Origin: Lebetimonas sp. JH292
GTDB lineage: Bacteria; Campylobacterota; Campylobacteria; Campylobacterales; Nautiliaceae
Assembly (NCBI RefSeq): GCF_000523275.1
Contig: NZ_ATHQ01000001.1
Location: forward strand, 1,021,289-1,061,288
Length of the DNA stretch: 40,000 nucleotides
Direction of reading: 5' to 3'
The stretch's first letter is position 1, and each line of letters opens with the position of its first letter. The notes under the pieces were generated by a model, which did no database searches, was not told where the DNA came from, and saw only the letters and a program-made list of their open reading frames with translations. Positions 5,146 through 37,298 of the stretch are shown here, one piece after another. The position numbers were made by a program, and so were the translations under genes.

Positions 5146-5244
5146 GGAGGGGATGTGATCCTGGTGGACACCCCGGGCTTCAAACCCGGTGGGGCGGCAG
5201 GTGACTGTTTGCCCGGAAGGTTCGATTCCTTCCCCCTTCCGCCA
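5146..5244 (+). tRNA. selC: tRNA-Sec (anticodon UCA)
   Basis: 99 nt, GGAGGGGA...CCCCTTCC-G-CCA. Extended acceptor stem, anticodon stem CCGGG/CCCGG around the loop CUUCAAA (UCA), a very long variable arm (GGGCGGCAG-GTGA-CTGTTTGCCC), T-arm GGAAGG-TTCGATT-CCTTCC, and an encoded CCA. It lies next to selA/selB. Confidence 0.9.
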
Positions 5245-6616: not shown

Positions 6617-7966
6617 ATGAATCTGTTTAGACAAATTCCAAAAGTGGATAAACTTTTAAAAAATAAAAATCTTCAAGATATTCCAGAGAATGTTTTGCTT
6701 TATTCCATACATTCAGTTTTGAATGAACTCAGAGAAAAAATAAAAAATAATAAAATAGATAAAATAGATGAAAATAAAATAATAAATGAAATTGAAAAAA
6801 AAGCTTGCGGCATATTAAGCCCTTCTTTAATTAATGTAATTAATGCCACAGGTGTTACAATCCATACAAATCTCGGCAGAAGTTTGATAGATGAAGAGAT
6901 TTTTGATGAAGCAAAGAAAGTCAGTACGCATTACTGTAATTTAGAATATGATTTGGATAAAGGAAAAAGGGGGGACAGGTATCATCACAGTGCGAAACAT
7001 TTGAGTTTTCTTTTTGGGTGTGAAGATGCGTTGGTTGTTAATAATAATGCGGCGGCTGTATTTTTGATTTTAAACACATTTGCAAAAGACAAAGAGGTTA
7101 TAGTGTCAAGAGGCGAACTTGTTGAAATAGGGGGAAGTTTCAGAGTGCCTGAAGTTATGAAAGCAAGCGGTGTAAAACTTGTTGAAGTCGGAACTACAAA
7201 TAAAACAAAACCAAAAGATTATGAAGAGGCAATCAATGAAAATACAGCAATGCTTATGAAAGTTCACAAATCAAATTATACTATTGAAGGGTTTAGTGAA
7301 GAAGTTTATATTGATGAAATTGTCAATCTTTCCCGTAAACATAATCTGCTTGATTATTATGATTTGGGAAGTGCATATATTCCAAAGCTTCCTTACGGAC
7401 TTTCAAACGCTGAGCCTTCAATTAATGATATAATGAAATTTTTACCTTCACTTATTAGTTTTAGCGGTGATAAACTTTTTGGAGGAGTTCAGGCGGGAAT
7501 AATTCTTGGTAAAAAAGAACTTATTAATAAACTTAAAAAAAATCAGATATTAAGGATGTTCAGGGTTGATAAAATTACACTCTCCCTTATTCAGGCAACC
7601 ACTCTTGCATATATTAAAAAAGAATATGAAAAAATTCCAACCCTCAGACAGATTTTTGCATCTATTGATGAACTCAAAAACAGGGCAAAAAAAATACTTA
7701 GCCTAACACCAGCCCTAAGGGCTAATATAAAAGAATCAAAAACATACGTAGGCGGGGGGACTATGCCAAATAAAGCCATTCCTACCGTGGTAATTGAAAT
7801 TGAAGGAAATGCTGTGAATTGGGAGAAAAAATTTAGAGAAAAACTTGTTATCGGTAGAATAGAAAATGAACATTTTGTGCTTGATGTAAGAACAATTCAG
7901 GATGATGAAATAGAAAAACTTGCAAATATAATAAATAAATTAATAAGCTGTGAGGTGAAAAGATGA
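6617..7966 (+). CDS. selA: L-seryl-tRNA(Sec) selenium transferase (selenocysteine synthase)
   Basis: 449 aa. INATGVTIHTNLGRS and the PLP-lysine motif FSGDKLFGGVQAGII match SelA. The stop overlaps the selB start (ATGA). Confidence 0.93.
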   Translation: MNLFRQIPKVDKLLKNKNLQDIPENVLLYSIHSVLNELREKIKNNKIDKIDENKIINEIEKKACGILSPSLINVINATGVTIHTNLGRSLIDEEIFDEAKKVSTHYCNLEYDLDKGKRGDRYHHSAKHLSFLFGCEDALVVNNNAAAVFLILNTFAKDKEVIVSRGELVEIGGSFRVPEVMKASGVKLVEVGTTNKTKPKDYEEAINENTAMLMKVHKSNYTIEGFSEEVYIDEIVNLSRKHNLLDYYDLGSAYIPKLPYGLSNAEPSINDIMKFLPSLISFSGDKLFGGVQAGIILGKKELINKLKKNQILRMFRVDKITLSLIQATTLAYIKKEYEKIPTLRQIFASIDELKNRAKKILSLTPALRANIKESKTYVGGGTMPNKAIPTVVIEIEGNAVNWEKKFREKLVIGRIENEHFVLDVRTIQDDEIEKLANIINKLISCEVKR

Positions 7967-9792
7967 GAAATATTATTATTGGAACCGCAGGGCATGTAGA
8001 CCATGGAAAAACATCTTTGATTGAGGCTATGACCGGGTATAACGGGGACGAGCTTAAAGAAGAAAAAGAGAGAGGAATTACAATCGATTTAAGCTTTACA
8101 AATATGAAAAGAGATGATGTAAATGTGGCATTTATAGACGTTCCGGGGCATGAAAAACTTGTAAAAAATATGATTAGCGGGGCGTTTGGATTTGACGCTA
8201 CGCTTTTTGCAATAGATGCAAACGAAGGTGTTATGCCGCAGACCATAGAGCATTTGGAAGTACTTGATATTTTAAAAGTTAAAAATATCATTGTGGCTTT
8301 GACAAAAATAGATTTGGCAAGTGAAGAAATTATTGAAAAAAGAAAAAAAGAGATAAAAGAATTAATAGCTAAATTTAAGAATTTAAAGCTTCTTGATATT
8401 ATCCCGACTTCCACTAAAATGCCTGAGACTATAGAAAATCTTAAGAATTATCTGTTTAACCTGCCTCCGAGAAATATTACACATTCCAAATTTTTCAGAT
8501 ACTATATAGACAGGGTGTTTTCCCTAAAAGGAATAGGAACTGTTGTAACAGGGACTGTTTTAAGCGGAAAAGTCAGACTTAAAGATAAAGTTTATATTAA
8601 TGAAACGGCTACTGTTACAACGGTTAAAAACCTGCAGGTTCATGGTGAAAATGTTAGTGTTGCCCATACCCATCAAAGACTTGCCATTAATCTCAATATT
8701 TCACACAATGAACTTAAAAAAGGATATTTGTTAAGTACAAAAGGATACTTAAGAGGATTTAAATTAATTGATGTTTATATTTCCCCGGTCGAAGGTAAAG
8801 AAATTAAGCATAATATGGGAGTTTTATTTATAAGCGGTGCAAAAAGAATACCTGCGAAAATTTTGATGTTTGATTCAAATGCAAAAGAAGGTTTTGCAAC
8901 TATGAAGTTGCAGGAAAAAGGATTTTTTGTTTATGAAGATCCGTTTGTGGTGCTTCATAAAGGAAGGGTTATCGGAGGAGGCGAAATTTTAAATCCTATA
9001 AGCGACCCTATTAAAAGAAATAAAAAATTATTGCTGTTAAATGCTTTAAAACAAAGGGATTTCCAAAAAGCATTTTCTATTTTGGTTGAAAATCACAAAA
9101 AAGGTTTCGGACTTCTTCAAAGTTATCAGAGATTTAATTTTTCGCCCGATGAAGCTCTCGGTATTGCAAAAACATTAAAAAATGTCTTTATAGATGAAGA
9201 AAATTATAATATTTTTTCAATGGATGTAAAAAAAGAGATAGAAAATGTGGTAAAAGAAACTTATGAAAAAAACAAATTTGCCTTTCTTTCTCCTGCATCA
9301 CTGAAACTCAGATTAAAATGGGCGAGTGAAAAATTGATTGAAACTGTTTTAAATGAATTTGTGGAAGAAGGATTTTTAATAAAAGAAGGCAATATTTATA
9401 AAAGAAAAGATCTTGGTGAAGTGAATATTGAAAAATCAGTCGAGCACAGGCTTTATTCGCTTTTGGATAATTCTGGATTAACTCCCGAAGCACCTTATAA
9501 TATATACGAAAAATTAAATATTGACAGAAAAGTGGGCGATCAGGCTATGAAGAACCTGACTAAGGCTAAAAAAGTTGTAAGGCTTGCCCATAATTTGTTT
9601 GTAAGTGATAAAAATATAAATTATGCAATGAAAAAAATGCGGGAAATTATGGAGAAAAAAGGATATATTGATATTAAAACATTTAAAGAAGAGATGCCTA
9701 TGAGCAGAAAATATATTGTGGCTTATCTTGATTATTTGGACAATATGGGGGATATTGTTAAAGTAGATAATAAAAGGTATTTGAAGAAATAA
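7963..9792 (+). CDS. selB: Selenocysteine-specific elongation factor SelB
   Basis: 609 aa. GTPase motifs GTAGHVDHGKTSL, DVPGHEKL and TKID, followed by a long C-terminal winged-helix extension typical of bacterial SelB (SECIS binding). Confidence 0.93.
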   Translation: MRNIIIGTAGHVDHGKTSLIEAMTGYNGDELKEEKERGITIDLSFTNMKRDDVNVAFIDVPGHEKLVKNMISGAFGFDATLFAIDANEGVMPQTIEHLEVLDILKVKNIIVALTKIDLASEEIIEKRKKEIKELIAKFKNLKLLDIIPTSTKMPETIENLKNYLFNLPPRNITHSKFFRYYIDRVFSLKGIGTVVTGTVLSGKVRLKDKVYINETATVTTVKNLQVHGENVSVAHTHQRLAINLNISHNELKKGYLLSTKGYLRGFKLIDVYISPVEGKEIKHNMGVLFISGAKRIPAKILMFDSNAKEGFATMKLQEKGFFVYEDPFVVLHKGRVIGGGEILNPISDPIKRNKKLLLLNALKQRDFQKAFSILVENHKKGFGLLQSYQRFNFSPDEALGIAKTLKNVFIDEENYNIFSMDVKKEIENVVKETYEKNKFAFLSPASLKLRLKWASEKLIETVLNEFVEEGFLIKEGNIYKRKDLGEVNIEKSVEHRLYSLLDNSGLTPEAPYNIYEKLNIDRKVGDQAMKNLTKAKKVVRLAHNLFVSDKNINYAMKKMREIMEKKGYIDIKTFKEEMPMSRKYIVAYLDYLDNMGDIVKVDNKRYLKK

Positions 9793-9802
9793 GAAGGAAA
9801 AA

Positions 9803-10846
9803 TTATTTAACAACTAAAGGAAACTCTTTGAATTCCTTAACAGTTGCTATTGCTTTAGCACTCACTCCTTCATTTTCCATTCTTTTTAAAAGTTCATTAA
9901 CTTTTTCCTGAGAGGCGCTGATTAAAAGCCCTCCGCTTGTCTGGGCATCAAATAGTATCATCTGCTCTTCAAAACTGAGTTCTTTTTCAAATTTTACTTT
10001 TCCTTCTAAAAATAGCTGGTTATTGTAACTTCCGGCAGGAATTATTCCCATGGATGCCTGATTAATCGCTTCTTTTAAGAAAGGCACTTTTTCAAATTCT
10101 ATTTCTATAGTGAAATTGTTAGCGCTCATTTCATACAAATGTCCTAAAAGACCAAATCCTGTAACATCTGTCATTGCATTTACACCGATTTCCCTTGCGA
10201 TAAGACTTGGTTTGTAATTTAATGTCCTTAAAATTTCAGCTACTTCACTGGCTACTGTTTTATCTATCAAATCCGCTTTTATTGCTGTTGTTAAAATTCC
10301 CATTCCAAGAGGTTTTGTTAAAACAATTACATCATCTTTTTTTAATGTATTGTTTCTTATAATTTTTTGAGGATGAATTGTACCTGTAACGCTAAGTCCG
10401 TAAATCATTTCCGGAGTTTCTATTGTATGTCCTCCGGCTAATACACCGCCGCACTCTTTTATTTTATTTTCACCGCCTTTTAAAATTTCATTTAATACAT
10501 CTTTTCCGTGATGACAGTTATCAAATCCGACTAAATTAAGGGCAGTTTTAACATCTCCTCCCATTGCAAACACATCGCTTAGGGAATTTGCAGCTGCAAT
10601 TTGTCCGTAAATAAACGGGTCGTCAACAACAGGTGTAATAAAATCGGCTGTTTGTACAAGTGCTATATCATCTGTTAATTTATAAACACTTGCATCCTCA
10701 TTTCCTTCAAATCCGACTATTAAATTTTCGTTTTTTCCATCAAGAACTTTTGTAGCTTTGTTTAGCTCCTCCGGAGCCAATTTCCCTGCTCAGCCGGCTG
10801 CTCTTACATATTTTGTAAGTTTGGCGTTGTTATTTAATTTAAGCAT
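9803..10846 (-). CDS. selD: Selenide, water dikinase (selenophosphate synthetase), selenocysteine-containing form
   Basis: The ORF track starts at 10780. Reading upstream in frame gives ATG (10846-10844) [31 protein letters not shown], with TGA at 10792-10790 as codon 19. This aligns with the E. coli SelD active-site loop (..YSHGAGCGCKI..). An RBS (AAAGGA) lies 6 nt before this ATG. The rest of the protein is the PurM-like SelD fold ([23 protein letters not shown]). Confidence 0.9.
10762..10780 (-). promoter_or_regulatory. SECIS-like hairpin downstream of the selD UGA
   Basis: On the minus strand, 10 nt after the UGA: TTGGCTCC-GGA-GGAGCTAA. That is 8 bp including one G-U pair, or 7 bp with the loop CGGAG. 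Confidence 0.55.
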
Positions 10847-10855
10847 ATATATCCT

Positions 10856-11212
10856 TTAAAATGTTATAACTTTGTCTGCTTCTTCAACCCAGGCAGCCAA
10901 GTCTTTCATTGTAGCTTTGATTTCAGGTGCAAAATATGGCTCGTTTTTAAATAATCCGCATCTTGCCTGACAAGTGCCGCATACTTTTAATTTTATACCG
11001 TTTTGATACATTTCTTTAAGCATTGCAACCAAGTCGTTGTCATAATTTTCAGGTTTTTTATTGCAATCCCTTGCCATATCCACGGCATCATTCATTAAAA
11101 AAATTCTTACATCGTTTCCTTTTTCAAACAAAACTTTTGCAAGTCTAAGTCCGTTCCAAGCTACATCGCTTCCGTCATATGGTTCGTGATTGAATATAAT
11201 TAAAATTTTCAT
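10856..11212 (-). CDS. DsrE/DsrF-like (YchN-fold) sulfur/selenium relay family protein
   Basis: 118 aa. MKILIIFNHEPYDGSDVAWNGLRLA... and the conserved Cys region KLKVCGTCQARCG are typical of the DsrE/YchN fold. It ends 9 nt upstream of the selD ATG. Confidence 0.75.
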   Translation of the reverse strand: MKILIIFNHEPYDGSDVAWNGLRLAKVLFEKGNDVRIFLMNDAVDMARDCNKKPENYDNDLVAMLKEMYQNGIKLKVCGTCQARCGLFKNEPYFAPEIKATMKDLAAWVEEADKVITF

Positions 11213-11490
11213 TTAACCTCCTTAATTTCTTTTATTTTTCCTTTATAACCTACGATTTCTATTGCGTGTAACAGTTTTTGAGGTGTTGTTTTTGTATCGT
11301 CAAAAATTACCGTTGCTATTTTAGTGTTTAGTAGTACTTTTGCTTTTATAACGCCCGGTGTCATTTTTAAACTTCTTTTTACAGCCATTGTACATAATGG
11401 ACAAGTCATTCCACTTACTTTAATAATAGCCACTTTTTCAGCTCCAAAAAGTGAACAAAATAATACTAAATTTAAAATAATTTTTTTCAT
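11209..11490 (-). CDS. Periplasmic heavy-metal-associated (HMA) domain protein, MerP-like
   Basis: 93 aa. Signal peptide MKKIILNLVLFCSLFGA followed by an HMA fold with GMTCPLC. There is a 4-nt overlap (ATGA) with the downstream DsrE-like gene. Confidence 0.8.
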   Translation of the reverse strand: MKKIILNLVLFCSLFGAEKVAIIKVSGMTCPLCTMAVKRSLKMTPGVIKAKVLLNTKIATVIFDDTKTTPQKLLHAIEIVGYKGKIKEIKEVK

Positions 11491-12075
11491 TTACTCTCCC
11501 ATAAACAGATATTGAGCCCAAAAAGGGTAAGTTAGCATAATTAATACAAAAACAGTACCAATACTTAAATATTTTACATAATTTTTGCAAATACTGCCAC
11601 TGCAAACCGGTCTTTTTCTAAGTTTAAAGAAATAATTTATCCACAAATAAACAATAATTATAACAGCTGCAATTGTAAAATAAATTCTATATGGTGCGAA
11701 AATATGTAAAAATGAAAGACTTCCGACACTTACTCCAAAAATCAAAAAAAGCAAAGGCCCTAAACAGCATGTGCTTGCCAAAATTGCAGTTATTGCCGCA
11801 CCTGCTATTAAAGCCCAAAAAGATTTTGATTTTTTACTTTCATTTTGAATTTCGCAACTGTAACCTTTTATAGCATTTATTATTGTATCTTTTCCTTCTT
11901 TTTTTTCATTAAAATAAATTCCTTGCGTTTGCAAAAATCTTTTTACATTCTGAATAGAAGAGAAGGAATTAAGTTTTATTTCAATAATTCCTTCTTCTAT
12001 TTCTTCTAATGCCTCTTTTGTTTTAAGAACAGGTTCTGGACAAGCTAAATTTCTTAAATCCAGCTTTTTTACCAT
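11491..12075 (-). CDS. Fusion protein: N-terminal TusA/SirA-like domain + C-terminal MerT-like three-helix membrane domain
   Basis: 194 aa. Residues 1-80 form a TusA fold with LRNLACPEPVLKTKEAL (CPxP motif). Residues 85-194 contain TM1 with the vicinal Cys pair ILASTCCLGPLLFLIFG (MerT signature), TM2, the loop RKRPVCSGSICKNY (second Cys pair) and TM3. Confidence 0.75.
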   Translation of the reverse strand: MVKKLDLRNLACPEPVLKTKEALEEIEEGIIEIKLNSFSSIQNVKRFLQTQGIYFNEKKEGKDTIINAIKGYSCEIQNESKKSKSFWALIAGAAITAILASTCCLGPLLFLIFGVSVGSLSFLHIFAPYRIYFTIAAVIIIVYLWINYFFKLRKRPVCSGSICKNYVKYLSIGTVFVLIMLTYPFWAQYLFMGE

Positions 12076-13199
12076 TAAAACAGTTCCTGAGAAGTAATTT
12101 TATATTCAAAACTTTTTGGAACATAATAATTTAACACATCATCATTTACCTCGGCATACGGATAACCAAACATATTTAGAGGGTATTGAACAGGTTTTGG
12201 ATAAAGTATGAAATCTCTTGCATGGTTAAATCCAACCCAGTTCATTTCCCATGAATGCAGATATTTTTTTACTAATTTTTGAACTTTTGGGTGGTTGTAA
12301 GGATATTTTTCAACTAATTCAAGTTTTGTAACATCAGCAGGGTCTGTAGGTATCCATCCAGCCCCTGGAATATAATATTCAGCCCTGCAGTGTTGCCAAG
12401 TGGTAATATTTGCAAAACCTTTACTATCACTTTTTCCAAGAGCTTTGTCAAAATGGCTTTTTCCAAGTCTGATACCAAAAACCTCTCTTGCAGGAATACC
12501 TGCCGCTCTTGTTAGGGCGGTAAAAAGTGAGCTTAAATCTGTACATTTTCCTCCAAACCATCCGTTTTTATAAATATATTCAGCTGTCGGTTTTTTTTGC
12601 TCTTGCATCATTTTGCCAACTTCACCTTTTCCGCATCCAATAGTTTTTGGATTTCTGAATGTATGGGCTGTACACCATAAATAAATTGCTTTTACTTTTT
12701 CAAACCTATCTTTTTTACCTTTTGTGATAAGTTCTGCCACTTCTTTTACAATTCCGTCAGTAGGAATATGGGCAGTAGGCTCAAGATATTTTAACACTTC
12801 TTTTGGATATGGCAGATTTTTTTTGCTGGCTTCTTTTATTAGTTCTAATGGAACACTTCTATCTTTTGTTTCAATTTCCATTTCCATTGTCAAAATTTTA
12901 GGCATAGCTGATTTTTCCCAATATGCATAAAAAGTATTTGCATCATATTCATTTTTATTGTTAATATCATAATCGTTATAATTTCCGCCAAATCTTAAAA
13001 ATTTAACTTTTTGATATGGTGCATTATATGGAAGCGGGTTCCATAATCTTGCAGGAAAACCTGGCTCGTCGTATTTGATGTTGAAATAATATTCAACCTT
13101 GAATCTTCTATAGCTTTCATCTTTTGCACTTACAATACCAGGTATAGAAACTGCCATACCTAAGGCTGCACCTGTTTTTAAAAACTCTCTTCTTTCCAT
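12075..13199 (-). CDS. TAT-exported transglutaminase-like cysteine protease-fold protein
   Basis: 374 aa. Twin-arginine signal MERREFLKTGAALGMAVSIPGIVSA. Transglutaminase-core triad context: GGKCTDLSSLFTALTRAAGIPAREVFG (Cys), WQHCRAEYYIPGAGW (His), IPTDPAD (Asp). Confidence 0.8.
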   Translation of the reverse strand: MERREFLKTGAALGMAVSIPGIVSAKDESYRRFKVEYYFNIKYDEPGFPARLWNPLPYNAPYQKVKFLRFGGNYNDYDINNKNEYDANTFYAYWEKSAMPKILTMEMEIETKDRSVPLELIKEASKKNLPYPKEVLKYLEPTAHIPTDGIVKEVAELITKGKKDRFEKVKAIYLWCTAHTFRNPKTIGCGKGEVGKMMQEQKKPTAEYIYKNGWFGGKCTDLSSLFTALTRAAGIPAREVFGIRLGKSHFDKALGKSDSKGFANITTWQHCRAEYYIPGAGWIPTDPADVTKLELVEKYPYNHPKVQKLVKKYLHSWEMNWVGFNHARDFILYPKPVQYPLNMFGYPYAEVNDDVLNYYVPKSFEYKITSQELF

Positions 13200-13211: not shown

Positions 13212-15970
13212 TTAAATTTTTTGTATTTTTATTTTTGTTGAACTAAAATCTGGTATACCTCCGATCGGATCAACCAAAGGTAAATCATAAAATTTTTTGT
13301 CTAATTTACTAATTTTATTTACACAAATTCCCATTGCTCTTTTTTTATCAGGAATTACGTAATTATTTTTAGTAACAAATAAGCACAGCATCCTTTGGCA
13401 ACAAAACATTTACTATTTTTACTTTGTCATAGTCTTTTAATCCTAATTTTTTAGCATCAATTGGGTTTATTTTTAATGTAATATCTGGTTCGTAATAAAG
13501 GGCTTTATCTAAACATATAGTTCTTGATTGTGTATGTAATGCCGATTTGTATGATGTTAAATAGAAATTTTTTTCTCCTATTATGGTATTTGTAGAAGTT
13601 GCAAGTTTTTCATTATATATATGTATTTTTTCAAAACCAAATATATAATTGTCATTTTCATCAAACCAATTGTTCTCTTTAAATACACCTCCTTTTGCTA
13701 AAACATTACATACTTTTTCCCATTCTTCTGATTGTAAAATATGTTTGTGTTTTGTAACAATATAATTTTTTTCTACATAATCAATAGTTTTTTTATCAGC
13801 CTTAGATATTTTTGCATTGTGTGCAAGATTGTAAATACCTCTTAGATAATAATCTTCTTGGGTATTTAAAGAAAATTTATTGTTTATAGCTTTTTCTCCA
13901 TAACCAGGTAATTTTAATTTTTTAGAAAGGTCAATCAAAAATTTTTCTAAATTAATATTATTTTTTGTGAGAGGCTCTATTATAGGTGTTCTAACACCAG
14001 TAAAATGACCTCCAGGAGCATGTGGATTTAAAAAGCCATAATGTCCTGTCTTAATCTGCATAGATATTTGTTTCATTAATAGTTGTGTCTATTGATACAA
14101 ACAGAGGAACTTTTGTTTTATTTTTTAACGTAGATTCAAATCTGTATCCTCCAGGCAGGATATTTTTGGTCTATACCGCTCATTGCGGCTACACTTAATC
14201 CTCCTTTAGTAATAAATATCCTCCTTTTCTGTTTACATTTCCAATTAATGCATTTAACATAGAAATTGCATAACTTGCATAAGTTCCGTTTATATAGTTT
14301 CCTCCTCCATGATACGCAAAAGCTGCACTGTGTGGGGCAATGTTTTTTTTATTAACTCCGCATTCTTTAGCATAATCATCAATTGAATGTTCAAAAACAG
14401 AGTTTTTCATTATTTTAAATGCTGTAACTACTTTATTTTACCTTCATATTCTAATATTGTATTTTTAGAATAAGTTTTCCAATTTTCCATAAAATCATCA
14501 TTTTTTAGTCCAATATCTGACCCTCTTAAAAATTTTCCATAATTTTTGTTTTCTTTATCAATTATTACTAAATGTGTAGCATTTGAAAATGTTGATCTTT
14601 TTTTATTTTTAGCTTCTTCTAAGTTTTTTTCTAAGAGAATTGCTTTTGGAGCTTTTGGATCAATTAATACGATTTTTAAATCATTATTTGCAGTTCTTTT
14701 TGCAATTATACTTCCTGATGTATTTACTCCGAATAAATATTAGCACCAAATATTAACATATATTTACAATTTTGAAAATCTGCCTTCATTTCAGCTTCTT
14801 TTCCGTCTGTAAAAGCGTAATTACCCATTCTAAAGCCGATACCACATATATCAGTATGTGCAATATAATTTTTTGAACCGATAGAATTATAAACCCATCT
14901 TTTTATAAAATCTACTCTTCCTCCTTGGGAACGTCCTGTAAACCATACAAATTGGTTTCTTTTAGAACCTAATTCTTCAGCTTCTTTTCAGATAAAATAT
15001 CTTTTATGCCTGGATAATATGTTTCATCCCCTAAATGTTTAAAATTTTTACCTCCGAAAGCTATTTCATTTATTAAAGTATCCCAATCTATAGGTTCGAA
15101 TTTTCCGCTTCCTCTTTCACCGTTTTTAAAGGTTTTGTTATTCTGTAAGGATTATAAACATATTCATTATTCATTTGCGGTTTTGCACACGTTGATGCTG
15201 AATATTTAAAACTTTTTTCTATATCTGTTGAATAAGAAATTTGGTTGAAATCTCTATTATATGGGTGATAAGGATTTCCATCAACTTGTACACATTTGTT
15301 GTCTTTAACGGCTATTCTTAAACCGCATCTTGCATTACAAGCTAAACAGACGGTATTTACTATTTTATCTGCTTTTGGTTTTTTTGTTTCATAAAATCCA
15401 TATTTTTCTTTATAAATAGGTGTAACATCAGTAAAAGTCGCTAAATGGTGATAAAGTGCATATTTTAAAGTTGGATTGTTTTCTAGAAGTTCTTTTAATT
15501 GTCCTTTAGGATTTTTAAGATTTCCATAAACTAAAGCCCCGCCTGGGCAAATACTGACACATCTTGGAATGTCTCCTTGAATAATTCTGTCAAAACACAT
15601 ATCGCATTTTTTTGCTTTTTTATCAAAAACTATAGCGTCAAAAGGACAGGCTTTAGCACAACTTTGTTTATTTTCGGCACAATTGATATCACATTTGTCT
15701 TCATTTATTAATATAACTCCATCTTTTGCACAAATTGCAATATATTCAAACGCTCGGCACAAAAGTTTTTATTTTGAAAAACACTACATCATAAGGAAGA
15801 TTTTTTTCAAGTTGACATGCTGCCATACAGCTTTTGCAGTCTAAACATCTGCTTTGGTCATATATTAAAACAGGCATAAATTCATTTTCTTCAGCATTAG
15901 CAAATTTAAATGTTGTTGTGCTGATTAAAACACTAAATGCTCCAATTTTTAAAAACTCTCTTCTTTCCAT
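13212..15970 (-). pseudogene. Decayed gene for a TAT-signal 4Fe-4S ferredoxin fused to a Mo/W-bisPGD (DMSO-reductase-superfamily, Psr/Phs/Ttr-like) oxidoreductase
   Basis: Stitching the minus-strand frames gives one continuous homolog: MERREFLK (TAT), CLDCKSCMAAC, CAKACP, CDMC...CVSICP (ferredoxin), CLACNARCG (MopB N-terminal cluster), ITKPLK/GERGSGKFEPIDWDTLINEIA, FVWFTGRSQGG, YIAHTDICGIGF (Cys ligand region), MLIFGANIY, IVLIDP, VVTAFKIMKNSVFEHSIDDYAKECGVNKKNI, GNVNRKGG, VPLFVSIDTTINETNIYAD, KLGLKDYDKVKIVN, DPIGGIPDFSSTKIKIQKI. At least 8-9 frame breaks or stops interrupt it, near 15746-15781, 15121-15133, 14981-14992, 14722-14740, 14428-14442, 14192-14210, 14158-14170, 14048-14063 and 13369-13409, mostly in A/T runs. 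Confidence 0.8.
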
Positions 15971-15978: not shown

Positions 15979-16569
15979 TTATAAGCTAATAGTATTTTTG
16001 TGAAGTAGAAAGTCCATTGTGTCGTATGCGTTTCCTATTTCTCCGACTTTTAGCTCTTCTGGAGGAATTTTGTAAAAATTCATACAAACGCCGCATGAAT
16101 AAATTTTTACGCCTCTTTTTTCAAATTCTTTTAAAATTTCTATTGTTTTTTCATTTTTTGTTGTTAAAAATACACCTCTGTTTACACATACAATAATTTC
16201 AGGAAGTTTTTTAAATTCAAGTGTTGTTTTTAAAAATCCTTCTATTAATATGTGTCCAAGCTCGCCTTCTCCAACTTTGTCATCTTTTATAAAAAGCACC
16301 TTATCTAAAAATTTATCATTATCTTCTTCTTTTGGTGCAATACTGCATTCATAACCTTTTACAATCCTGATTATGGTTTCACCATTATCCAGTTTTTCTT
16401 CTTCTGCAACCAGTCCCTGGTTTGCCGCAAATCTTTTAACGTTTTGAACAGATGAAATAGAATTTACCAAAACCTCCAAAATTCCTTCGTCCATCTCTTC
16501 AAGTGCTTTTTTTGTATCAAGCACAGGTTTTGGACATGCCGCATTTCTGCAGTCTATTTTTTTATTCAT
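15979..16569 (-). CDS. yedF: YedF-like selenium-metabolism-associated protein (TusA/SirA-like N-domain + DsrE-like C-domain)
   Basis: 196 aa. The N-terminus CRNAACPKPVLDTKKALEEMDEG (CPxP) is paralogous to the N-domain of 11491..12075. The C-terminal half, with IIVCVNRGVFL and KIYSCGVCMNFY, is DsrE-like. Length and architecture fit the roughly 200-aa YedF family (TIGR03527, recalled from memory). Confidence 0.72.
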   Translation of the reverse strand: MNKKIDCRNAACPKPVLDTKKALEEMDEGILEVLVNSISSVQNVKRFAANQGLVAEEEKLDNGETIIRIVKGYECSIAPKEEDNDKFLDKVLFIKDDKVGEGELGHILIEGFLKTTLEFKKLPEIIVCVNRGVFLTTKNEKTIEILKEFEKRGVKIYSCGVCMNFYKIPPEELKVGEIGNAYDTMDFLLHKNTISL

Positions 16570-17329
16570 TTGTTACTCCTTTTGTTGTTTCGTATCCGGC
16601 AAGAGCCGCTCCGAATGCCCCCATCATCTGAGGATATTCCGGTGTGTATACTTCTTTTTTTAATTTTTTTGAAAGCAATTCCCTAAGAAGTGAATTTTTA
16701 GCTCCTCCCCCGGTAAAAACGATTTTGTCTTCCGGTCTAATGCTTTTGGCCATTCCGGCTAATCTTGATGCTATTGAATCAATAATTCCGTATCCTATAT
16801 TTTCAGGCTTTTCTTTTTTTGCCATAAGAGAAATTACTTCTGATTCGGCAAATACCGCACACATTGAAGATATCTGGATTGTTTTGTCAGCTTTTTTACA
16901 AAAATCTCCAAACTCATCAAGCGGAATCTGGAGTTTTACAGCCGCCATTTCTATAAATTTTCCGGTTCCGGCCGCACATTTGTCGTTCATTTTGAAATTA
17001 TCAAAATTTCCGCCTTCGGTTACTTTTATTACCTTGCTGTCCTGTCCTCCTAAATCAATAACAGTTCTTACATCCGGAAAGAAAAAATAAGCCCCTTTTG
17101 CATGGGCTTTTATTTCGCTGATTACAGGAACGTCAAACGCTTCTTGCATCATATATCTTCCATAACCTGTTGCAACCAGGGTTTCAATAGGTTTATCTTT
17201 TAAATATTCTTTTACCTGTTCGTCGGGATTTATAACGGTATCTAATACTTTAATGTCAATTATGTTTTTATTATCATCAATTCCAACAATTTTTGTATAG
17301 GTTGAGCCTATGTCAACTCCGTAATACAT
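16562..17329 (-). CDS. BcrAD/BadFG-type ATPase: activator of a (R)-2-hydroxyacyl-CoA dehydratase-like or double-cubane reductase
   Basis: 255 aa. ASKHA fold with GVDIGSTYTKIV and DLGGQDSKVI. The two cluster-bridging Cys contexts are MNDKCAAGTGKF and ISSMCAVFAESEV, and FTGGGAKN is present. Confidence 0.85.
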   Translation of the reverse strand: MYYGVDIGSTYTKIVGIDDNKNIIDIKVLDTVINPDEQVKEYLKDKPIETLVATGYGRYMMQEAFDVPVISEIKAHAKGAYFFFPDVRTVIDLGGQDSKVIKVTEGGNFDNFKMNDKCAAGTGKFIEMAAVKLQIPLDEFGDFCKKADKTIQISSMCAVFAESEVISLMAKKEKPENIGYGIIDSIASRLAGMAKSIRPEDKIVFTGGGAKNSLLRELLSKKLKKEVYTPEYPQMMGAFGAALAGYETTKGVTNE

Positions 17330-18642
17330 TAAAATCCTTTAAATTTAACGTTCTTTTTAAATGAAATACTTTCCAAAAACGCTTCAACTCTTGTTTTAAT
17401 CTGACCCATATCTTCCATTGAATAATCAGATTCAATTCTTAAAACAGGAATATTTTCAGCCTGAAGTCTGTCTATTACTCTTTTTGATTCCACGTTGTAT
17501 GTATGACAAAAAGAGAGTGAATAATAAATAATACCGTCAGCTTTTCTTTCTTTATACATTTTGATTATTTTATCTATTCTATCATCATTTGGAGTAAAGC
17601 ATGCACAGTCTATTTTCATATATCTATCAAGCATATTATTCATTAAATCATCAATAGTTTCAGCTCCTTGGGTTTCAATATTGTCTTTATAATATCTGTG
17701 TCCGATACATGCTTCTTCGTTTATTATTACTCCACCGGTTGTTTCAACAATATGATGAAGCTTCCAGTTTGGAGGTGCCATAGGTGTTCCAATTACCATA
17801 ATTCTCGGAGTATCTTTTTTTACAACAGAAACGCATTTTTTAATTCTTTCTTCAAGTTCGTCGCAAAGTTCATTTACTTTTTGTGTAAATCTTTCAGGGT
17901 CGTCATAAAAAGAGATTTGGTTAATTAAAAGTCCGTCTTTTCCGCTGATAGGTACAACATCAGGATACATGCCCCTTAATTTGTCAAGACGCTGCATGGC
18001 TTCTCTTTTTTTGTTTATAATTTCAATTCCCTTTTTAAGCTCTTCAAATGTAAGTTCTTTTCCTATAATTGATTCAATGTGTTTTTTAAAATCATAAACT
18101 TCACTTTTCCAAAGTTCTTTTTCTTTTTCTCTTTTCATTTGAGGAATATGCATTACATGAGTTGGGTGCAATTCGTTTAAAATTTCCCATGTTTTTTTCT
18201 TAGCTTCGCAGCTTGTTTCCCCGTATATAAAATCTGAAGCCTGTGTATACGGACATGTTTTTTGAACTTTAAATCCATACGCAGATTTAATTAAAGGGCA
18301 TATATTTCTTGGCAAATCTCTTTCGGCATCTGCAATAGAAAATTCAGCCCCGCCGCATAATCCGTAACATACTCCATCAGCCCCGACAACAATTTCTTCC
18401 GGGACAAATATACAAAAAGTTCCAACTAAAGGTTTTCCTTCTTTTTTCTTTTCTAAAATTTCTTCTATTCTTTTACCGTGTATTTCACTCATTACATAAT
18501 CAAAATATTCCATTGCTTTTGGTCTGTTTTCCTGCTTTAAAAAAAATTCAGGATATATTTCACCCAGAGCAGCCAAAAGTTCATTGTGTTTTTCTATATC
18601 CATACCAAGTTCTTGATACATAGGTGTGTAATCTTTAGACAT
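17329..18642 (-). CDS. 2-hydroxyacyl-CoA dehydratase (HGD-D) family protein, single-subunit type; candidate double-cubane-cluster reductase
   Basis: 437 aa, Cys-rich ([58 protein letters not shown]). A single HGD-D gene paired with one activator ATPase, rather than an alpha/beta pair, matches the DCCP arrangement. Confidence 0.75.
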
Positions 18643-18795
18643 ACTTATCCTTTTTTAATTTTTTTAATTTTTATTTTTTTAGGATAAGCCTTATCCTTTT
18701 AACAACATTTTATCTTGAAGGTTTTAGAAGTACATCATGAAGCTTTTAGGAGTTTATGCCTCATGTGTTTCCCAGCCTGGGAGCTTAATTAGAGA

Positions 18796-18801
18796 ATTAT
18801 A
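18796..18801 (-). promoter_or_regulatory. Possible -10 box (TATAAT) for the 18642-9803 gene string
   Basis: A minus-strand TATAAT about 150 nt upstream of the ATG at 18642. No -35 element was evaluated, and read-through from the Crp-family gene is equally possible. Confidence 0.3.
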
Positions 18802-18836
18802 ACTCTTTTTTTCTTAAAGTTTGCTTAAAGTTTAAA

Positions 18837-19478
18837 TTATTGTAAATAATTTTTTAATTTTTTCATATCTATAATGATGTATTTGTCTTTGCCGATTTTT
18901 TTCAAAATTTTTTCTTTTATCAGTTGATTAAAAAATTTGGAAGTAGTCTGTCTTTGCGAACCGATAAAAGTTGCCAAATCTTTTATGCTTAAAGATAAGT
19001 CTATTTCAATACCTTCATCAGTTTTTTTACCGCTTTTTTTTGCAATTTCCAAAAGAAATGAAATTATTCTTCTTTTGCAGTTTTCAAAAACCAAGCCTTT
19101 AATAATATCTTTTTCAACCATCATAATATTTCTGAATGAATTTAATACAGAATTACAAAACATAGGATTATCGAAAACGGCAGGATGTTTTGTAACATCA
19201 AGAGATAAAACAACGGAGTCGCTTAGAAATTCAATTATAGATTCCGGATGCATTACATATATATTATTTTTCGATAAAAAATATAATATAAATTCTTTGT
19301 CTTCATATAAAAAAGAAACTTTTGCTTCACCTTCTTTAAAAATTAACAGTTTTGTTTTTTCTTCAGGATAAAATATTTCCCCTTTTTTAAAATGCATTTT
19401 TACAAATTTTGATAAATCTTCTTTACTCAAAATTTTTTCTATATCAAAACTGTCAATTTTAATTCTGCAAAATTTCAT
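18837..19478 (-). CDS. Crp/Fnr-family transcriptional regulator
   Basis: 213 aa. N-terminal cNMP-binding-like beta-roll and C-terminal HTH (LSIKDLATFIGSQRQTTSKFFNQLIKEKIL). It lacks the N-terminal Cys cluster of true FNR. It is divergent from fdhF. Confidence 0.8.
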   Translation of the reverse strand: MKFCRIKIDSFDIEKILSKEDLSKFVKMHFKKGEIFYPEEKTKLLIFKEGEAKVSFLYEDKEFILYFLSKNNIYVMHPESIIEFLSDSVVLSLDVTKHPAVFDNPMFCNSVLNSFRNIMMVEKDIIKGLVFENCKRRIISFLLEIAKKSGKKTDEGIEIDLSLSIKDLATFIGSQRQTTSKFFNQLIKEKILKKIGKDKYIIIDMKKLKNYLQ

Positions 19479-19614: not shown

Positions 19615-21846
19615 ATGACAAAAGTACAAACCACATGTCCTTATTGTGGGACAGGTTGTAATATAGATTTGATTGTTGAAAACGGAAGAGTCGTTAAAGC
19701 GGAAGGCACTAAAAACCATCCTGTAAATGACGGTGAATTGTGTTTAAAAGGTATGTTTGGATGGGAATATATACATTCTCCAAAAAGACTGACCAAACCT
19801 TTAATCAGAAAAAAATATGGTAAATATTCAAGAGATGGACGTTTGGAAGAATCTTCATGGGAAGAAGCATACGCTCTTGTTGCTTCAAAATTAAAAGAAA
19901 CTGTTGAAAAATATTCATCTGATAGCGTTGTAGGTTTTTCATCAGCAAGATGTACAAATGAAGAAAATTATATTTTTCAAAAATTTATAAGGGCACTTGG
20001 TTCAAATAATGTAGACCACTGTGCTCGTTTTTGACACGGTCCTACAGTAGCCGGTCTGGCTAAAACACTTGGAAGCGGGACTATGACAAACGATTTGGCG
20101 GAATTTGCAACAGATACGGATGTGTTTTTATTAATAGGTACAAATACAAGTGAATGCCATCCTATAATCGCTATGCAGGTTTTAAGAGGCCTTGAGAGAG
20201 GTGCAAAGCTTGTTGTAATTGACATTAAAAAAACAGATATGGCAAAAAAAGCGGATGTATTTATCCAGATACCGAGCGGATATAATATACCTTTAATTAA
20301 TGCAATGATAAATTATATTATTCAAAACAATTTATATGATAAAGAATTTGTTGAGAAATATACAAACGGATTCGAATGGTTAAAAGAAACAGTTAAAGAT
20401 TTTACATTTGAAAAAGTGGAAAAAGAAACAGGTGTGTCAAAAGAACTTTTGATTGAAGCTACTGAATTATATGCAAAAGGTAATCCTTCCGCAATACTTT
20501 ATACAATGGGAATTACCCAGTTTATAGACGGAACATATAATGTAATGGATGTTTCAAACCTTGCAATTGTTACTGGGAATTTAGGTAAAAAAGGAGGAGG
20601 TGTCAATCCCCTAAGAGGCCAAAACAATGTTCAGGGTGCAGGTGATATGGGCGCTCTTCCTGGTGATTTGCCAAATGGAAAAGTGACTGATCCAAAAGCC
20701 CGTGAAAAAGCTGAGGAAATTTGGGGATTTAAAATAAATCCAATTCCAGGCTTAAAACTTTCTCAAGTACCTCATGCAATTGATGAGGGAAAAGTGAAAT
20801 TTTTATATATTTTTGGAGAAAATCCTGTAATGAGCGATCCGTGGACGGAACATTTTATTCACGCTTTGAAAAAAACAGATTTTATAGTTGTTCAGGATAT
20901 TTTTCTTACAGAAACAGCCCAGGAAGCGGATGTTGTATTGCCAAGTGCGTGCTGGGGTGAAAAAGACGGAACATTTAGTAACACTTCAAGAAAAGTTCAA
21001 TTGGTAAGAAAAGCTGTTGAGCCTCCTGCAAATTTAAATCCAGACTGGAAAGTAATCTGTAATGTAGCAAACAGAGTAGGGTTAAAAGGCTTTAATTTCA
21101 ATACGGCTGAGGAAATTTGGAATGAAGTCAGAAAATTAAACCCTTTCAAATTTAAAGGGATTACTTATGAAAGAATGGCTAAATTAAACGGAATAAACTG
21201 GCCTTGTCCTGATGAAGATCATCAGGGAACTCCTTATTTGTATGAAGATAACAAATCTTTTTTACCTGACGGAAAATTCAAACTTGTACCTATTGGTTAT
21301 ACATTAGATAAAAATGAAAGAATTGTTTTAGAAAATAAATTAAGAAAAACTTTTAATATTCCTGATGATTATCCTGTAGGCGTTGGGTGTCCTAGTGAAC
21401 AGCCTACAGAAGAATATCCTTGTATGTACACAACAGGTAGGAAAGTTTATCATTATCATACAGGAACAATGACAAGAAAATGCAAACCTCTTGAAATGGG
21501 TGCAGATATTATGGGACCTGTTATTGAGGTCAGCGAAGATATAGCAAGAGAAAGAAATTTGGAGAATGGATGCTATGCCGTGGTTTATAATAAAAGAGGA
21601 AAGATTGCTGCAAAAGTATTGGTAAATAAAGACTTAAGATACGGAACTATATTTACCACATTTCATTATGCGGAAGCAGACGGAAACGAACTTACCAATG
21701 CAGAGGAATCAGACCCGGTATCAGGAATGCCGCCACTTAAAATGTCAATAGCGGATATTAAAAAAATTTCCGAAGAAGAATTTTTAAAAATAAGAACAGA
21801 AATTCTTAGAGAAATAGAACCTGAAATTATTGAAAGGAGGGGTTAA
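19615..21846 (+). CDS. fdhF: Formate dehydrogenase H-type catalytic subunit (cytoplasmic, Mo/W-bisPGD), selenocysteine-containing
   Basis: The two ORF-track pieces (19615..20034 and 20083..21846) are in the same frame, separated only by TGA at 20032-20034. Read-through gives [30 protein letters not shown], the canonical FDH active-site Sec context. The N-terminus has TCPYCGTGC with no TAT signal. Confidence 0.92.
20035..20075 (+). promoter_or_regulatory. Bacterial SECIS element of fdhF
   Basis: UGA CAC GGU CCU ACA GUA GCC GGU CUG GCU A. The apical hairpin is UAGCC-GGUCU-GGCUA (20048-20062). The loop sequence and spacing closely parallel the E. coli fdhF SECIS (..GUUGCA GGUCU GCAC..). Confidence 0.65.
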
Positions 21847-33288: not shown

Positions 33289-34017
33289 ATGATAAAAGAA
33301 TTAATAGAAAAATATAAAAACGATGAAAATAAATTAACTTGTGCAAAAGCTTATGTAGTTGCTAAAAAAGCTGGGGTTGAACCTATCGTTGTAGGAAAGA
33401 TGGCTGATGAAATGGGTGTTAGGATTACTGACTGCGGTCTGGGACAGTTTGGAGGGCTTGATTTTACGGACAATTATGAAAAAGAAATTGTTGATGAGCT
33501 TGAAAAATTAGCTGATGATAAAAAAAGGGTTTTTTGCAAAGATGCAAGAAAACTTGCCGAAAAATATAATCTAAAAAAAGTAAGAAGTGCAATAAAAGAT
33601 AACGGATTTGAGGTAATATACTGCGAACTTGGTGTTTTTAAAGAAAAAAAACGTCCACGTGCTTTTATTAAAACAAAAGTCTGGATAGAAAATCAAAAAG
33701 GTGAATTACTGTTTGGAAAAGGAAAAACAGAAATTTTGGAGTTGATAGAAAAAGAAGGTTCGATTGCAAAAGCGGCTGAGAAAATGGGACTTAATTATAA
33801 AAAAGCCTGGTCGCATATCAAAACACTTCAGAAAAACCTTGATGATGAACTGGTAACCGTAGAAAAAGGTGTAAAAGGCGGCACATATTTAACTCCCAAG
33901 GCAAAGGAGTATATTGAAATTTTTAAAGAATTGGAAAGTGAAATTCAGGAATTTGCCAATAAAAGGTTTAAAGAGCTGTTTTTAAAAAAATTAAAAGGCC
34001 CTAAGAAGAAGAATTAA
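33289..34017 (+). CDS. Atypical ModE-family regulator: duplicated Cys-containing N-terminal module + ModE-type wHTH, no Mop/TOBE domain
   Basis: 242 aa. Residues 135-215 (GKTEILELIEKEGSIAKAAEKMGLNYKKAWSHIKTLQKNL...GVKGGTYLTPKAKEYI) align with the E. coli ModE N-terminal HTH (GSISQGAKDAGISYKSAWDAINEMN...GGKGGGGAVLT). Residues 15-120 contain two copies of a roughly 40-aa motif, C..A...A...........G..I..C.LG.F. Confidence 0.7.
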   Translation: MIKELIEKYKNDENKLTCAKAYVVAKKAGVEPIVVGKMADEMGVRITDCGLGQFGGLDFTDNYEKEIVDELEKLADDKKRVFCKDARKLAEKYNLKKVRSAIKDNGFEVIYCELGVFKEKKRPRAFIKTKVWIENQKGELLFGKGKTEILELIEKEGSIAKAAEKMGLNYKKAWSHIKTLQKNLDDELVTVEKGVKGGTYLTPKAKEYIEIFKELESEIQEFANKRFKELFLKKLKGPKKKN

Positions 34018-34672
34018 AAAGATGATTAATTATATCAATATTTAATTTATATTTTCTCTTTGGCAGTTTTGTAATAATATTTTTATCCTGCAAATCTTTA
34101 AACAGTTTTATCAAGGTAGGTTTGCTGATATCAATTCTTTTCATTATTTCAGGATATAAAAGTGAAAAATTGTAATTATCATCCAAAGAATTTACTATAA
34201 GTTTAATAACTTCCAATTGTTTGCTTTCGCACACTAAAGAAGCTAATTTAAATAAAATAGTAGAATTTTCCAATTCTTTTTTTTGGTATTTAGGAAGCAG
34301 TGTTTCATAAATGCTGTCTAATAATTCTTTTATTTTTATCGGTTTTACTAAGTAATTTGAAACTTTTTCTTTTATTGCCTCAAGTAAATAATCTGTTTCG
34401 GTATAGGCGGTTGTTAAAATAAAAGGAATTTTAAAACCCTGATTTTTTAAAAAAGAGATAAATTCAATTCCGTTTTTATCTTCTATTAAAATGTCGCTTA
34501 TAATTAAATCTATATGGTTTTCTTTTAATATTTTATAAGCTTCTTGTGTATTGCTTGCTAAATATATTTTTTTAACAAAATCTTTAAGAATTTCACCTAA
34601 AGTGTTTAATAAATTTTTATCATCTTCTATATATAAAATGTTAAAATTTTTCAAAATATCATAATTTTTCAT
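34001..34672 (-). CDS. Response regulator (receiver domain + C-terminal winged-helix-like domain)
   Basis: Receiver motifs ILYIEDD, DLIISDI and ILTTAY..KP. I prefer the start at 34672 (MKNYDILK...). The ORF-track start at 34708 adds 12 residues that overlap the kinase gene. Confidence 0.8.
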   Translation of the reverse strand: MKNYDILKNFNILYIEDDKNLLNTLGEILKDFVKKIYLASNTQEAYKILKENHIDLIISDILIEDKNGIEFISFLKNQGFKIPFILTTAYTETDYLLEAIKEKVSNYLVKPIKIKELLDSIYETLLPKYQKKELENSTILFKLASLVCESKQLEVIKLIVNSLDDNYNFSLLYPEIMKRIDISKPTLIKLFKDLQDKNIITKLPKRKYKLNIDIINHLFNSSS

Positions 34673-34695
34673 TACTCGCCTTTGGCAAAATGATT

Positions 34696-37209: not shown

Positions 37210-37260
37210 AACAAACCTTTTTAAAATTTTTACTTTTTAAGCTAACTTTAAGCTTTTTGG

Positions 37261-37269
37261 TGTTATAAT
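37261..37269 (+). promoter_or_regulatory. Extended -10 promoter (TGtTATAAT)
   Basis: TGTTATAAT lies 30 nt upstream of the ATG at 37299. Confidence 0.5.
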
Positions 37270-37298
37270 AGCATTAATCAAAAATTAAAAGGCTGCAA

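Follow-up and report, generated by a model that had tools for sequence, protein, structure and literature searches.

Double-cubane cluster proteins (DCCPs) are nitrogenase-like, ATP-driven reductases that occur in about 5% of prokaryotic genomes; their structure has been solved and they have no known physiological substrate. What such an enzyme does in a selenium operon is the question raised by a 40,000-nucleotide stretch of the Lebetimonas sp. JH292 genome (contig NZ_ATHQ01000001.1, positions 1,021,289 to 1,061,288; hereafter the window, with positions counted from its first nucleotide), in which a DCCP gene and the gene for its partner ATPase (together DCCP-ACT) head a minus-strand array that runs through yedF to selD. 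Here we describe the proteins of this operon, the conservation of the arrangement across phyla and a leader RNA that the operon has in common with yedF operons lacking DCCP, and we propose that the DCCP may reduce small selenium species to selenide for SelD.

A link between DCCPs and selenium is, as such, already published and is not claimed here as new. Haft and Gwadz (bioRxiv 10.1101/2022.07.06.499078; J Bacteriol 2023) found 955 of 970 strong NF040772 proteins in SelD-containing assemblies and proposed that they process selenium compounds or, formally, that they contain a selenium-bridged cluster, and a 2023 preprint describes DCCP as 'provisionally linked to selenium metabolism'. Lin et al. 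2015 (PMC5322559, Table 1) list a 'CoA-substrate-specific enzyme activase' among the STRING partners of YedF, together with an HGD subunit and a transglutaminase-like enzyme, and an HGD subunit is also the top partner of LysR_Se. The sequence-only reading that preceded this analysis had put forward selenium reduction as a new hypothesis for the enzyme class, which in view of these papers was overstated. New to this work are the operon-level coupling of DCCP to selD in Nautiliaceae, the neighbourhood counts across phyla, the recognition of complementary optional reductase modules (cytoplasmic DCCP and a periplasmic TtrBA-like enzyme) and the shared leader RNA; our literature search found nothing that joins double-cubane proteins and YedF.

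Results

A class I DCCP and its ATPase overlap yedF

The sequence-only reading had described three minus-strand open reading frames (ORFs) of 437, 255 and 196 aa, the first two overlapping by 1 nt and the last two by 8 nt, as a double-cubane-type reductase, its activator ATPase and a YedF-like protein, and this description proved accurate throughout. The 437-aa product of the first gene (17329-18642, minus strand) scores 475.9 bits against the NCBIfam model NF040772, 'double-cubane-cluster-containing anaerobic reductase' (cutoff 350), whose members correspond to sequence cluster IV of Jeoung et al. 2020. Its match in the PDB is the DCCP of C. hydrogenoformans (ChDCCP; CHY_0487; 6ENO/7YYL), with an E value of 1e-151, 507 bits and 51% identity in our alignment A1. 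Residues 6-426 align to ChDCCP residues 5-421, N-terminal extension included, and the window protein is accordingly the long, single-subunit HGD-D form that characterizes class I. It is 94% identical to its counterpart in Lebetimonas natsushimae and 89% identical to that in Caminibacter profundus.

All 11 ChDCCP cysteines, which the sequence-only reading had proposed to count against a characterized protein, are retained. The seven-cysteine motif defined in PMC7317905, made up of six cluster ligands and a cysteine beside the cluster, is found at C77, C96, C115, C145, C312, C346/348 and C379 and is invariant in alignment A1. Cysteine conservation was judged by alignment; the published spacing, taken as a literal regular expression, matches neither the window protein nor ChDCCP because the paper counts spacing differently. 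We also considered whether DCCP is itself a selenoprotein. For this and the comparisons below we used the 80 closest DCCP loci (52-91% identity, one genome per species scanned), which were translated and searched in all reading frames with hidden Markov models of neighbouring families. No homolog in these loci is split by an in-frame stop, and DCCP is therefore not a selenoprotein.

The protein also belongs to the Pfam family HGD-D (E 6e-120), which includes subunits of 2-hydroxyacyl-coenzyme A (CoA) dehydratases and benzoyl-CoA reductases. Against models of such subunits it reaches 108.5 bits for HadC (cutoff 700), 72.3 for BzdN (cutoff 453.8) and 68.3 for BcrC (cutoff 421), and the PDB subunits BzdN, HadC, MbdN and MbdO score 23-63 bits. 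The 40-kb window contains a single HGD-D ORF, as do 79 of the 80 homologous loci, and the one exception (L074) carries a tandem duplicate of DCCP itself. The HgdAB and HadBC enzymes with their activators HgdC and HadI belong to the same superfamily and use the same type of ATP-dependent activator as the window pair. By contrast, they pair two different subunits, each with one [4Fe-4S] cluster, act on CoA esters and need no more than catalytic activation, whereas the window DCCP falls far below their models, carries an additional set of cysteines and has no partner subunit. Family scans of the whole 40 kb, and of the L. natsushimae and C. profundus loci (L081 and L082, respectively), detected no acyl-CoA transferase, 2-hydroxyacid dehydrogenase or acyl-CoA dehydrogenase/Etf genes, and the window has no fermentation genes either, in line with the sequence-only reading. 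Taken together, the model scores, PDB matches and conserved cysteines support placing the protein among the double-cubane enzymes and not among the 2-hydroxyacyl-CoA dehydratases.

The second gene (16562-17329, minus strand) encodes a 255-aa protein that scores 248 bits against TIGR00241, acyl-CoA dehydratase activase (cutoff 125), and matches the DCCP reductase chain (DCCP-R) 7YYL_E as well as 4EHT and 1HUX. Its cysteines C118, in NDKCAAGTG, and C157, in SSMCAVFAESE, appear from an alignment to the activator 4EHT to be the counterparts of the DCCP-R cluster ligands C115 and C152 (PMC9351452). By sequence, then, DCCP has next to it an archerase-type ATPase with the two cysteines predicted to bind a [4Fe-4S] cluster, as it does in C. 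hydrogenoformans (CHY_0488), and the same ATP-driven [8Fe-9S] mechanism would be expected of the window pair. In its working this mechanism resembles that of the nitrogenase Fe and MoFe proteins, in which a [4Fe-4S] cluster that bridges an ATPase dimer passes low-potential electrons to an 8-Fe cluster and on to small molecules (PMC9351452), although the folds are unrelated and DCCP stands outside the nitrogenase family.

The third gene (15979-16569, minus strand) encodes a 196-aa, two-domain YedF that scores 193.1 bits against TIGR03527, selenium_YedF (cutoff 110), with a TusA-like N-terminal domain (PF01206) and a DsrE-like C-terminal domain (PF02635). The motifs CPxP (C12-P13-x-P15) and CGxC (C159-G160-x-C162) are invariant in our alignment A2.

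The operon extends to selD

Beyond the three genes treated in the sequence-only reading, the array continues to selD and is flanked by selC, selA, selB and a selenocysteine (Sec)-containing formate dehydrogenase (FDH). From DCCP to selD all genes lie on the same strand and are separated by overlaps or gaps of at most 9 nt, save at a pseudogene and the 13 nt that follow it. What would set the window pair apart from its C. hydrogenoformans equivalent is its place at the head of an operon, downstream of a conserved leader RNA, together with yedF, mer-like uptake genes, a dsrE-like gene and selD.

The operon ends in selD (9803-10846, minus strand; TIGR00476, 336 bits), which is present in its selenoprotein form with the motif G-U-AGK and an in-frame TGA at 10790-10792. 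[quoted passage not shown] Converging on selD from the plus strand are selA (6617-7966; TIGR00474, 544 bits) and selB (7963-9792; TIGR00475, 320 bits), and selC, which encodes tRNA-Sec, lies at 5146-5240 (plus strand; ARAGORN; Rfam RF01852, 67 bits).

Between yedF and selD lie, in order, the pseudogene and four intact minus-strand genes. The first of the four encodes a transglutaminase-like protein (12075-13199; PF01841) with a twin-arginine translocation (TAT) signal, and it is followed by a membrane protein (11491-12075) in which a TusA domain, matching the N-terminal part of TIGR03527, is fused to MerT; the L. natsushimae ortholog of this fusion carries PF01206 and PF02411. Next come a MerP/CopZ-like periplasmic HMA protein with the motif GMTCPLC (11209-11490), which matches TIGR02052 (MerP) and NF041115 (UxxU metal-binding (seleno)protein), both under cutoff, and a DsrE/TusD-like protein (10856-11212) with a weak match to TIGR03012 and PF02635 on its orthologs. 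The TusA-MerT, MerP-like and DsrE-like proteins (10856-12075) belong to families with selenoprotein members elsewhere and are here present in their cysteine forms.

The row of TusA-MerT, MerP-like and DsrE-like genes near selD suggests, by analogy, a mer-like thiol relay for selenium. The mer operon (MerP-MerT-MerA) likewise brings together an HMA protein in the periplasm, a membrane protein of the MerT type that has a cysteine pair, a cytoplasmic cysteine carrier and a terminal reductase. In the window, however, the terminal reductase would be DCCP and not a flavoprotein, the proposed cargo would be selenium instead of Hg(II), and MerT is fused to TusA.

The pseudogene (13212-15970, minus strand) derives from a TAT-exported, TtrB-TtrA-like fused molybdopterin oxidoreductase, as fragments matching TtrB and TtrA indicate, and it has at least six frame switches and many stops inside an otherwise intact operon. 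An intact, 1157-aa ortholog occupies the same position, between yedF and the transglutaminase gene, in a metagenomic relative without DCCP (L086, 3498-6971), with a TtrA-model score of 514 bits that falls far short of the 1750 cutoff, and the gene is absent from the L. natsushimae operon. We therefore consider the window pseudogene to be a decayed optional module. Consensus scans for promoters and terminators over 9.5-19.7 kb stayed at background level and were uninformative on the operon boundaries.

DCCP neighbours selenium genes in several phyla

The arrangement is conserved in relatives of the window strain, which belongs to the Nautiliaceae. The L. natsushimae operon reads DCCP-ATPase-YedF-transglutaminase-TusA/MerT-HMA-DsrE-SelD, with selB and selA convergent, and the shorter C. 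profundus operon reads DCCP-ATPase-YedF-DsrE-SelD, followed by selAB. On a wider scale, the 80 DCCP loci span at least six phyla and include Campylobacterota, Desulfobulbales, Nitrospirota, WOR-3, Bacillota and one metagenome-assembled genome (MAG) labelled as an archaeon. The ATPase gene is within 2 kb of DCCP in 73 of them. At least one of selD, selA, selB, yedF and the DUF3343 gene lies within 5 kb of DCCP in 21 loci, and any sulfur or selenium carrier gene in 46. Finding 21 or more loci has a binomial probability of 3e-10 at a background of 5%, a figure that we consider generous. The neighbourhood enrichment of yedF and selD on which the sequence-only reading had staked its selenium link is thus borne out, and DCCP is in addition co-operonic with selD.

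By family, the loci have selD (9), full-length yedF (9), a stand-alone gene for the YedF C-terminal domain (5), selA (6), selB (8), the Se/S carrier family PF11823, formerly DUF3343 (7), transglutaminase-like genes (12), rhodanese genes (12 and 8 by two family models), HesB-like genes (14), HdrA (10) and MvhD (8) near DCCP. These counts, like the totals of 21 and 46, are lower bounds because many contigs end early. The arrangements recur in separate lineages. In Arcobacteraceae, selB-selA-selD is divergent from DCCP-ACT, with genes for the YedF C-terminal half, a transglutaminase, MerT and MerP following; Campylobacteraceae MAGs have DCCP-ACT-YedF-SelD; Nitrospirota have DCCP-ACT-rhodanese-YedF; the WOR-3 locus with the tandem DCCP has YedF-DCCP-DCCP-ACT-YedF; and the MAG labelled as an archaeon has YedF-DCCP-SelD. 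In three loci of Bacillota (L052, L068 and L080) the PF11823 gene separates DCCP from the ATPase gene, and in three further loci (L075, L078 and L079) it lies within 10 nt of DCCP.

Desulfobulbales present a different order, HdrA-MvhD-HesB-(rhodanese)-DCCP-ACT, in which the HdrA, MvhD, HesB-like and, where present, rhodanese genes lie directly upstream of DCCP (L033, L037, L039, L042, L046, L047, L054, L066 and related loci), and HdrA/MvhD could there be a low-potential electron source for DCCP. A family of about 190 aa without a Pfam match ('F10') occurs within 2 kb of DCCP in 13 loci. In five Arcobacteraceae loci (L009, L015, L017, L025 and L036), a 113-aa protein corresponds to the DsrE-like C-terminal half of YedF (e.g. 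12114-12455, minus strand, in L015), and in all but one of these loci its gene converges on that of the ATPase. We considered that it might be part of a full-length yedF interrupted by a Sec codon; the upstream frame is full of stops other than TGA, and it is therefore a stand-alone DsrE-like gene.

The reciprocal scan, for which the query was an alignment of four sequences, covered 66 yedF-centred metagenome loci, mostly from vent Campylobacterota. Their common operon is yedF-(transglutaminase-TusA/MerT-MerP)-DsrE-selD, and selD lies downstream of yedF in most of the loci long enough to judge, as it does in the same operon of the window.

A leader RNA precedes both DCCP and yedF

Between the putative promoter and the DCCP start codon lies a structured leader RNA (18726-18788, minus strand) that scores 57.3 bits (E 9e-13) with R1, a covariance model built from twelve yedF leaders from which the window and L. 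natsushimae were deliberately excluded. It is part of about 190 nt upstream of DCCP that are conserved with L. natsushimae and C. profundus, and it also precedes yedF in operons without DCCP. The RNA forms two helices, the hairpin P1 (UCCCA-GGC-UGGGA) and P2 (ACACAUGAGGC...GCUUCAUGAUGU). R1 detects 42 sites in all, including 9861-9918 in L. natsushimae and 9767-9832 in C. profundus (alignment A11), and 39 of these are sense-strand sites directly 5' of either DCCP or yedF, across Campylobacterota. Stand-alone DCCP-ACT pairs of Sulfurospirillum, without selenium genes nearby, also have such sites. The other three are a site in L021, one at positions 74-147 of L111 and a reverse-strand echo of the site in L092.

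The site in L021 (2190-2261, minus strand) is a second copy of the leader in that locus, oriented opposite to the first and situated 5' of two minus-strand ORFs (1165-2151 and 494-1156) that resemble a MetN/MetI-type ABC transporter, as judged by eye without a family-library scan. This copy hints that uptake of organic selenium or sulfur belongs to the same regulon.

Across 39 distinct sequences, compensatory changes occur at all six base pairs of P1, and 99.6% of the cells are paired. Of the 41 sequences with a P1 helix, 40 have GGN as its loop. P2, by comparison, is nearly invariant in sequence. Rfam returned nothing relevant to the leader at gathering threshold, nor at E values up to 10. 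The possibility that the conservation reflects an encoded peptide was rejected upon inspection, as the leaders of the window and of C. profundus have different reading frames. P1 is similar to the SECIS hairpins after the UGA codons of the window's fdhA and selD genes, and it combines covariation with the conserved apical-loop GG of SECIS-like elements. Like the SECIS-like, SelB-bound element in the 5' untranslated region of E. coli selAB (PMC13449736), it is a short GGN-loop hairpin before a selenium-metabolism operon. It differs in lying about 110 nt from the start codon, as opposed to 3 nt from the Shine-Dalgarno sequence in E. coli, and in being followed by a second, sequence-invariant hairpin. 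By this analogy the leader may be a SECIS-like element that binds SelB, and a riboswitch is equally possible; we regard it as a candidate new selenium-linked cis-regulatory RNA of either kind. Given that DCCP-ACT and yedF-selD have this cis-element in common, they probably form one regulon.

The putative promoter (18796-18830, minus strand) consists of CTTTAAG-CAAA-CTTTAAG (18830-18813) followed by TATAAT (18801-18796) and is conserved upstream of the L. natsushimae and C. profundus DCCP genes. The CTTTAAG direct repeat, which in relatives takes the form of an inverted repeat, TTAAG...CTTAA, lies immediately after the stop codon of a Crp-family gene. Located at the -35 position just upstream of the TATAAT box, it is likely a regulator binding site.

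Genes flanking the operon

The Crp/Fnr-family regulator gene (18837-19478, minus strand; PF13545) is directly upstream of the operon promoter and is absent from the equivalent position in L. natsushimae and C. profundus. Divergent from the operon is a hyf-type formate hydrogenlyase cluster (approximately 19.6-31.4 kb), the first gene of which, fdhA (19615-21846, plus strand), encodes the Sec-containing FDH alpha subunit. It is split into two ORFs by its Sec codon (TGA at 20032-20034, CARF-U-HGPTVAG), and TIGR01591 matches both halves. The cluster is followed by focA, fdhD and a gene for an HTH_1-family regulator; L. natsushimae has neither this whole block nor the Crp gene between its fdhD and DCCP genes. 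The lowest G+C content of the window (0.23-0.25) is found at 34001-38000, a segment with a gene of the response-regulator family (34001-34708) and two more ORFs that, from their synteny with L. natsushimae, probably encode a sensor kinase and a periplasmic binding protein.

Discussion

The operon in the window places an ATP-driven reductase pair in front of genes for selenium carriers and SelD. The role that we consider most likely for the pair, though we would put our confidence somewhat below an even chance, is the ATP-driven reduction of small selenium species to selenide for SelD. Under this proposal, an operon for selenium acquisition would have recruited the DCCP and its ATP-hydrolysing electron donor as its two leading genes. 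The transglutaminase-like, MerP-like and TusA-MerT proteins would form a mer-like thiol relay that imports selenium from the periplasm. Reduced ferredoxin or flavodoxin would load the [4Fe-4S] cluster of the ATPase dimer, and ATP hydrolysis would push an electron onto the [8Fe-9S] cluster of DCCP, which has a very low potential and which neither dithionite nor Ti(III) citrate reduces (PMC9351452, PMC7317905). DCCP would then reduce a small selenium species that thiols reduce poorly, candidates being Se(0) or polyselenide, a low-molecular-weight selenotrisulfide or perselenide, or another small selenium compound, with selenide as the product. YedF and the DsrE-like protein would take the selenium and chaperone it to SelD, the selenophosphate of which would feed the insertion of Sec, dependent on selA and selB, into both FDH and SelD itself, and the leader RNA with its SECIS-like hairpin would couple expression of the operon to selenium status. 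The Se(0)/HSe- couple, at an E0' of about -0.7 V, a value for which our literature search found no source, lies far below S(0)/HS-, and a potential this low would justify an ATP-driven reductase. Of what the sequence-only reading had claimed, the double-cubane class and the selenium link are upheld, and the specific chemistry that it named, reduction of Se(0), selenotrisulfide or perselenide, is retained as a conditional proposal.

Several observations weigh against this role. Our literature search found no paper in which a selenium substrate was tested with any DCCP, and thiol- and thioredoxin-dependent routes lead from selenite to selenide without a need for ATP. Co-location with selD would equally fit an enzyme that consumes selenophosphate, and the HesB, rhodanese, TusA and DsrE neighbours could instead serve sulfur chemistry or the maturation of Fe-S clusters. 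In class I DCCPs, N-terminal helices narrow the substrate channels such that only small molecules can enter (PMC7317905), which argues against perselenide bound to YedF or another carrier as the direct substrate. DCCP-ACT adjoins yedF in only 6 of the 66 yedF loci and is absent from most SelD genomes; it is therefore an accessory 5' module of the selenium operon and not a universal partner, and, missing as it is from most yedF-selD operons and most SelD genomes, selenium use does not require it. In Sulfurospirillum, moreover, no selenium genes adjoin the DCCP-ACT pair.

One alternative, which we consider unlikely, reverses the direction of selenium flow such that DCCP itself depends on selenium: SelD, YedF and the carriers would mature its cofactor (e.g. 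[8Fe-8S-Se]), and its true substrate would be an unrelated small molecule. Haft and Gwadz raised this as a formal possibility, and their observation that nearly all DCCPs reside in SelD genomes, the converse being untrue, is consistent with it. So is the finding that in 14 loci of the Desulfobulbales type DCCP directly adjoins a member of the HesB/IscA-like family, whose proteins carry Fe-S clusters. The co-operonic pattern with selD is also seen for selenium-dependent molybdenum hydroxylases. Recombinant ChDCCP is nonetheless active with an [8Fe-9S] cluster that bears a µ2-sulfide (PMC9351452, PMC7317905), and no catabolic or otherwise substrate-indicating genes recur beside DCCP in the 80 loci. 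Furthermore, a leader that DCCP has in common with selenium uptake and carrier genes fits supply of selenium better than its consumption.

Selenium release from an organic source has about the same, low probability. DCCP would in this case cleave or reduce an organoselenium or organometallic compound, such as a methylated selenide, a species derived from selenomethionine, selenocyanate or a substrate of SAO-type systems, and so free the selenium for reuse. DCCPs have a published association with the SAO locus and with type I mlp methyltransferase clusters, for which demethylation of methyl-selenides was proposed, and DCCP reduces azide and is inhibited by cyanide (PMC9351452, PMC7317905); the second leader copy in L021, 5' of a transporter that looks MetN/MetI-like by eye, also points in this direction. 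Neither the window nor the Nautiliaceae operons, however, contain methyltransferase, corrinoid or SAO genes, and the neighbours in the window (MerT/MerP, TusA and DsrE) resemble proteins that relay inorganic ions.

Less probable again is that DCCP acts in sulfur chemistry, on persulfide, polysulfide or another low-potential sulfur species, and has selenium genes as neighbours only through the trafficking that sulfur and selenium have in common and the clustering of selenoprotein families. Rhodanese, TusA, DsrE, HdrA and MvhD are indeed classical families of sulfur metabolism, many loci, those of Desulfobulbales especially, have such neighbours without selD or yedF, and the intact TtrBA-like protein of L086 falls in the tetrathionate/thiosulfate/polysulfide reductase clade. 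S(0)/HS- chemistry, on the other hand, needs no potentials below that of dithionite, DCCP is co-operonic with selD in several lineages, and 98% of DCCPs are encoded in SelD genomes (Haft and Gwadz). Finally, a dehydratase or benzoyl-CoA reductase component with its partner subunit elsewhere in the genome is highly improbable, and we exclude a dehydratase role for the pair: Pfam places the protein in HGD-D and many databases label its homologs dehydratases, but its scores with the subunit models are far under their cutoffs, the PDB subunits reach 23-63 bits against 507 for DCCP, each locus has a single HGD-D gene, the window lacks CoA-transferase and acyl-CoA genes, and CoA esters are too large for the narrow channels of class I (PMC7317905).

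Reduction of small selenium species for SelD is thus the reading that we carry forward, and it bears on an unsettled question, namely the source of selenide for SelD in anaerobes without glutathione. For an enzyme class that has lacked a physiological substrate, the DCCP-ATPase-YedF-mer-like-SelD operon and its common leader take the published co-occurrence to a concrete enzyme pair, with carriers, an acceptor and a shortlist of substrates. The leader RNA is, separately, a candidate for a new selenium-responsive regulatory element. In its most general form, which we offer tentatively and with distinctly less confidence than the role proposed for the window pair, class I DCCPs may be the ATP-driven selenide generators of anaerobes that mobilise elemental or otherwise refractory selenium for SelD, and in Campylobacterota they may belong to a regulon under a new SECIS-like leader RNA that would sense selenium or Sec-tRNA status.

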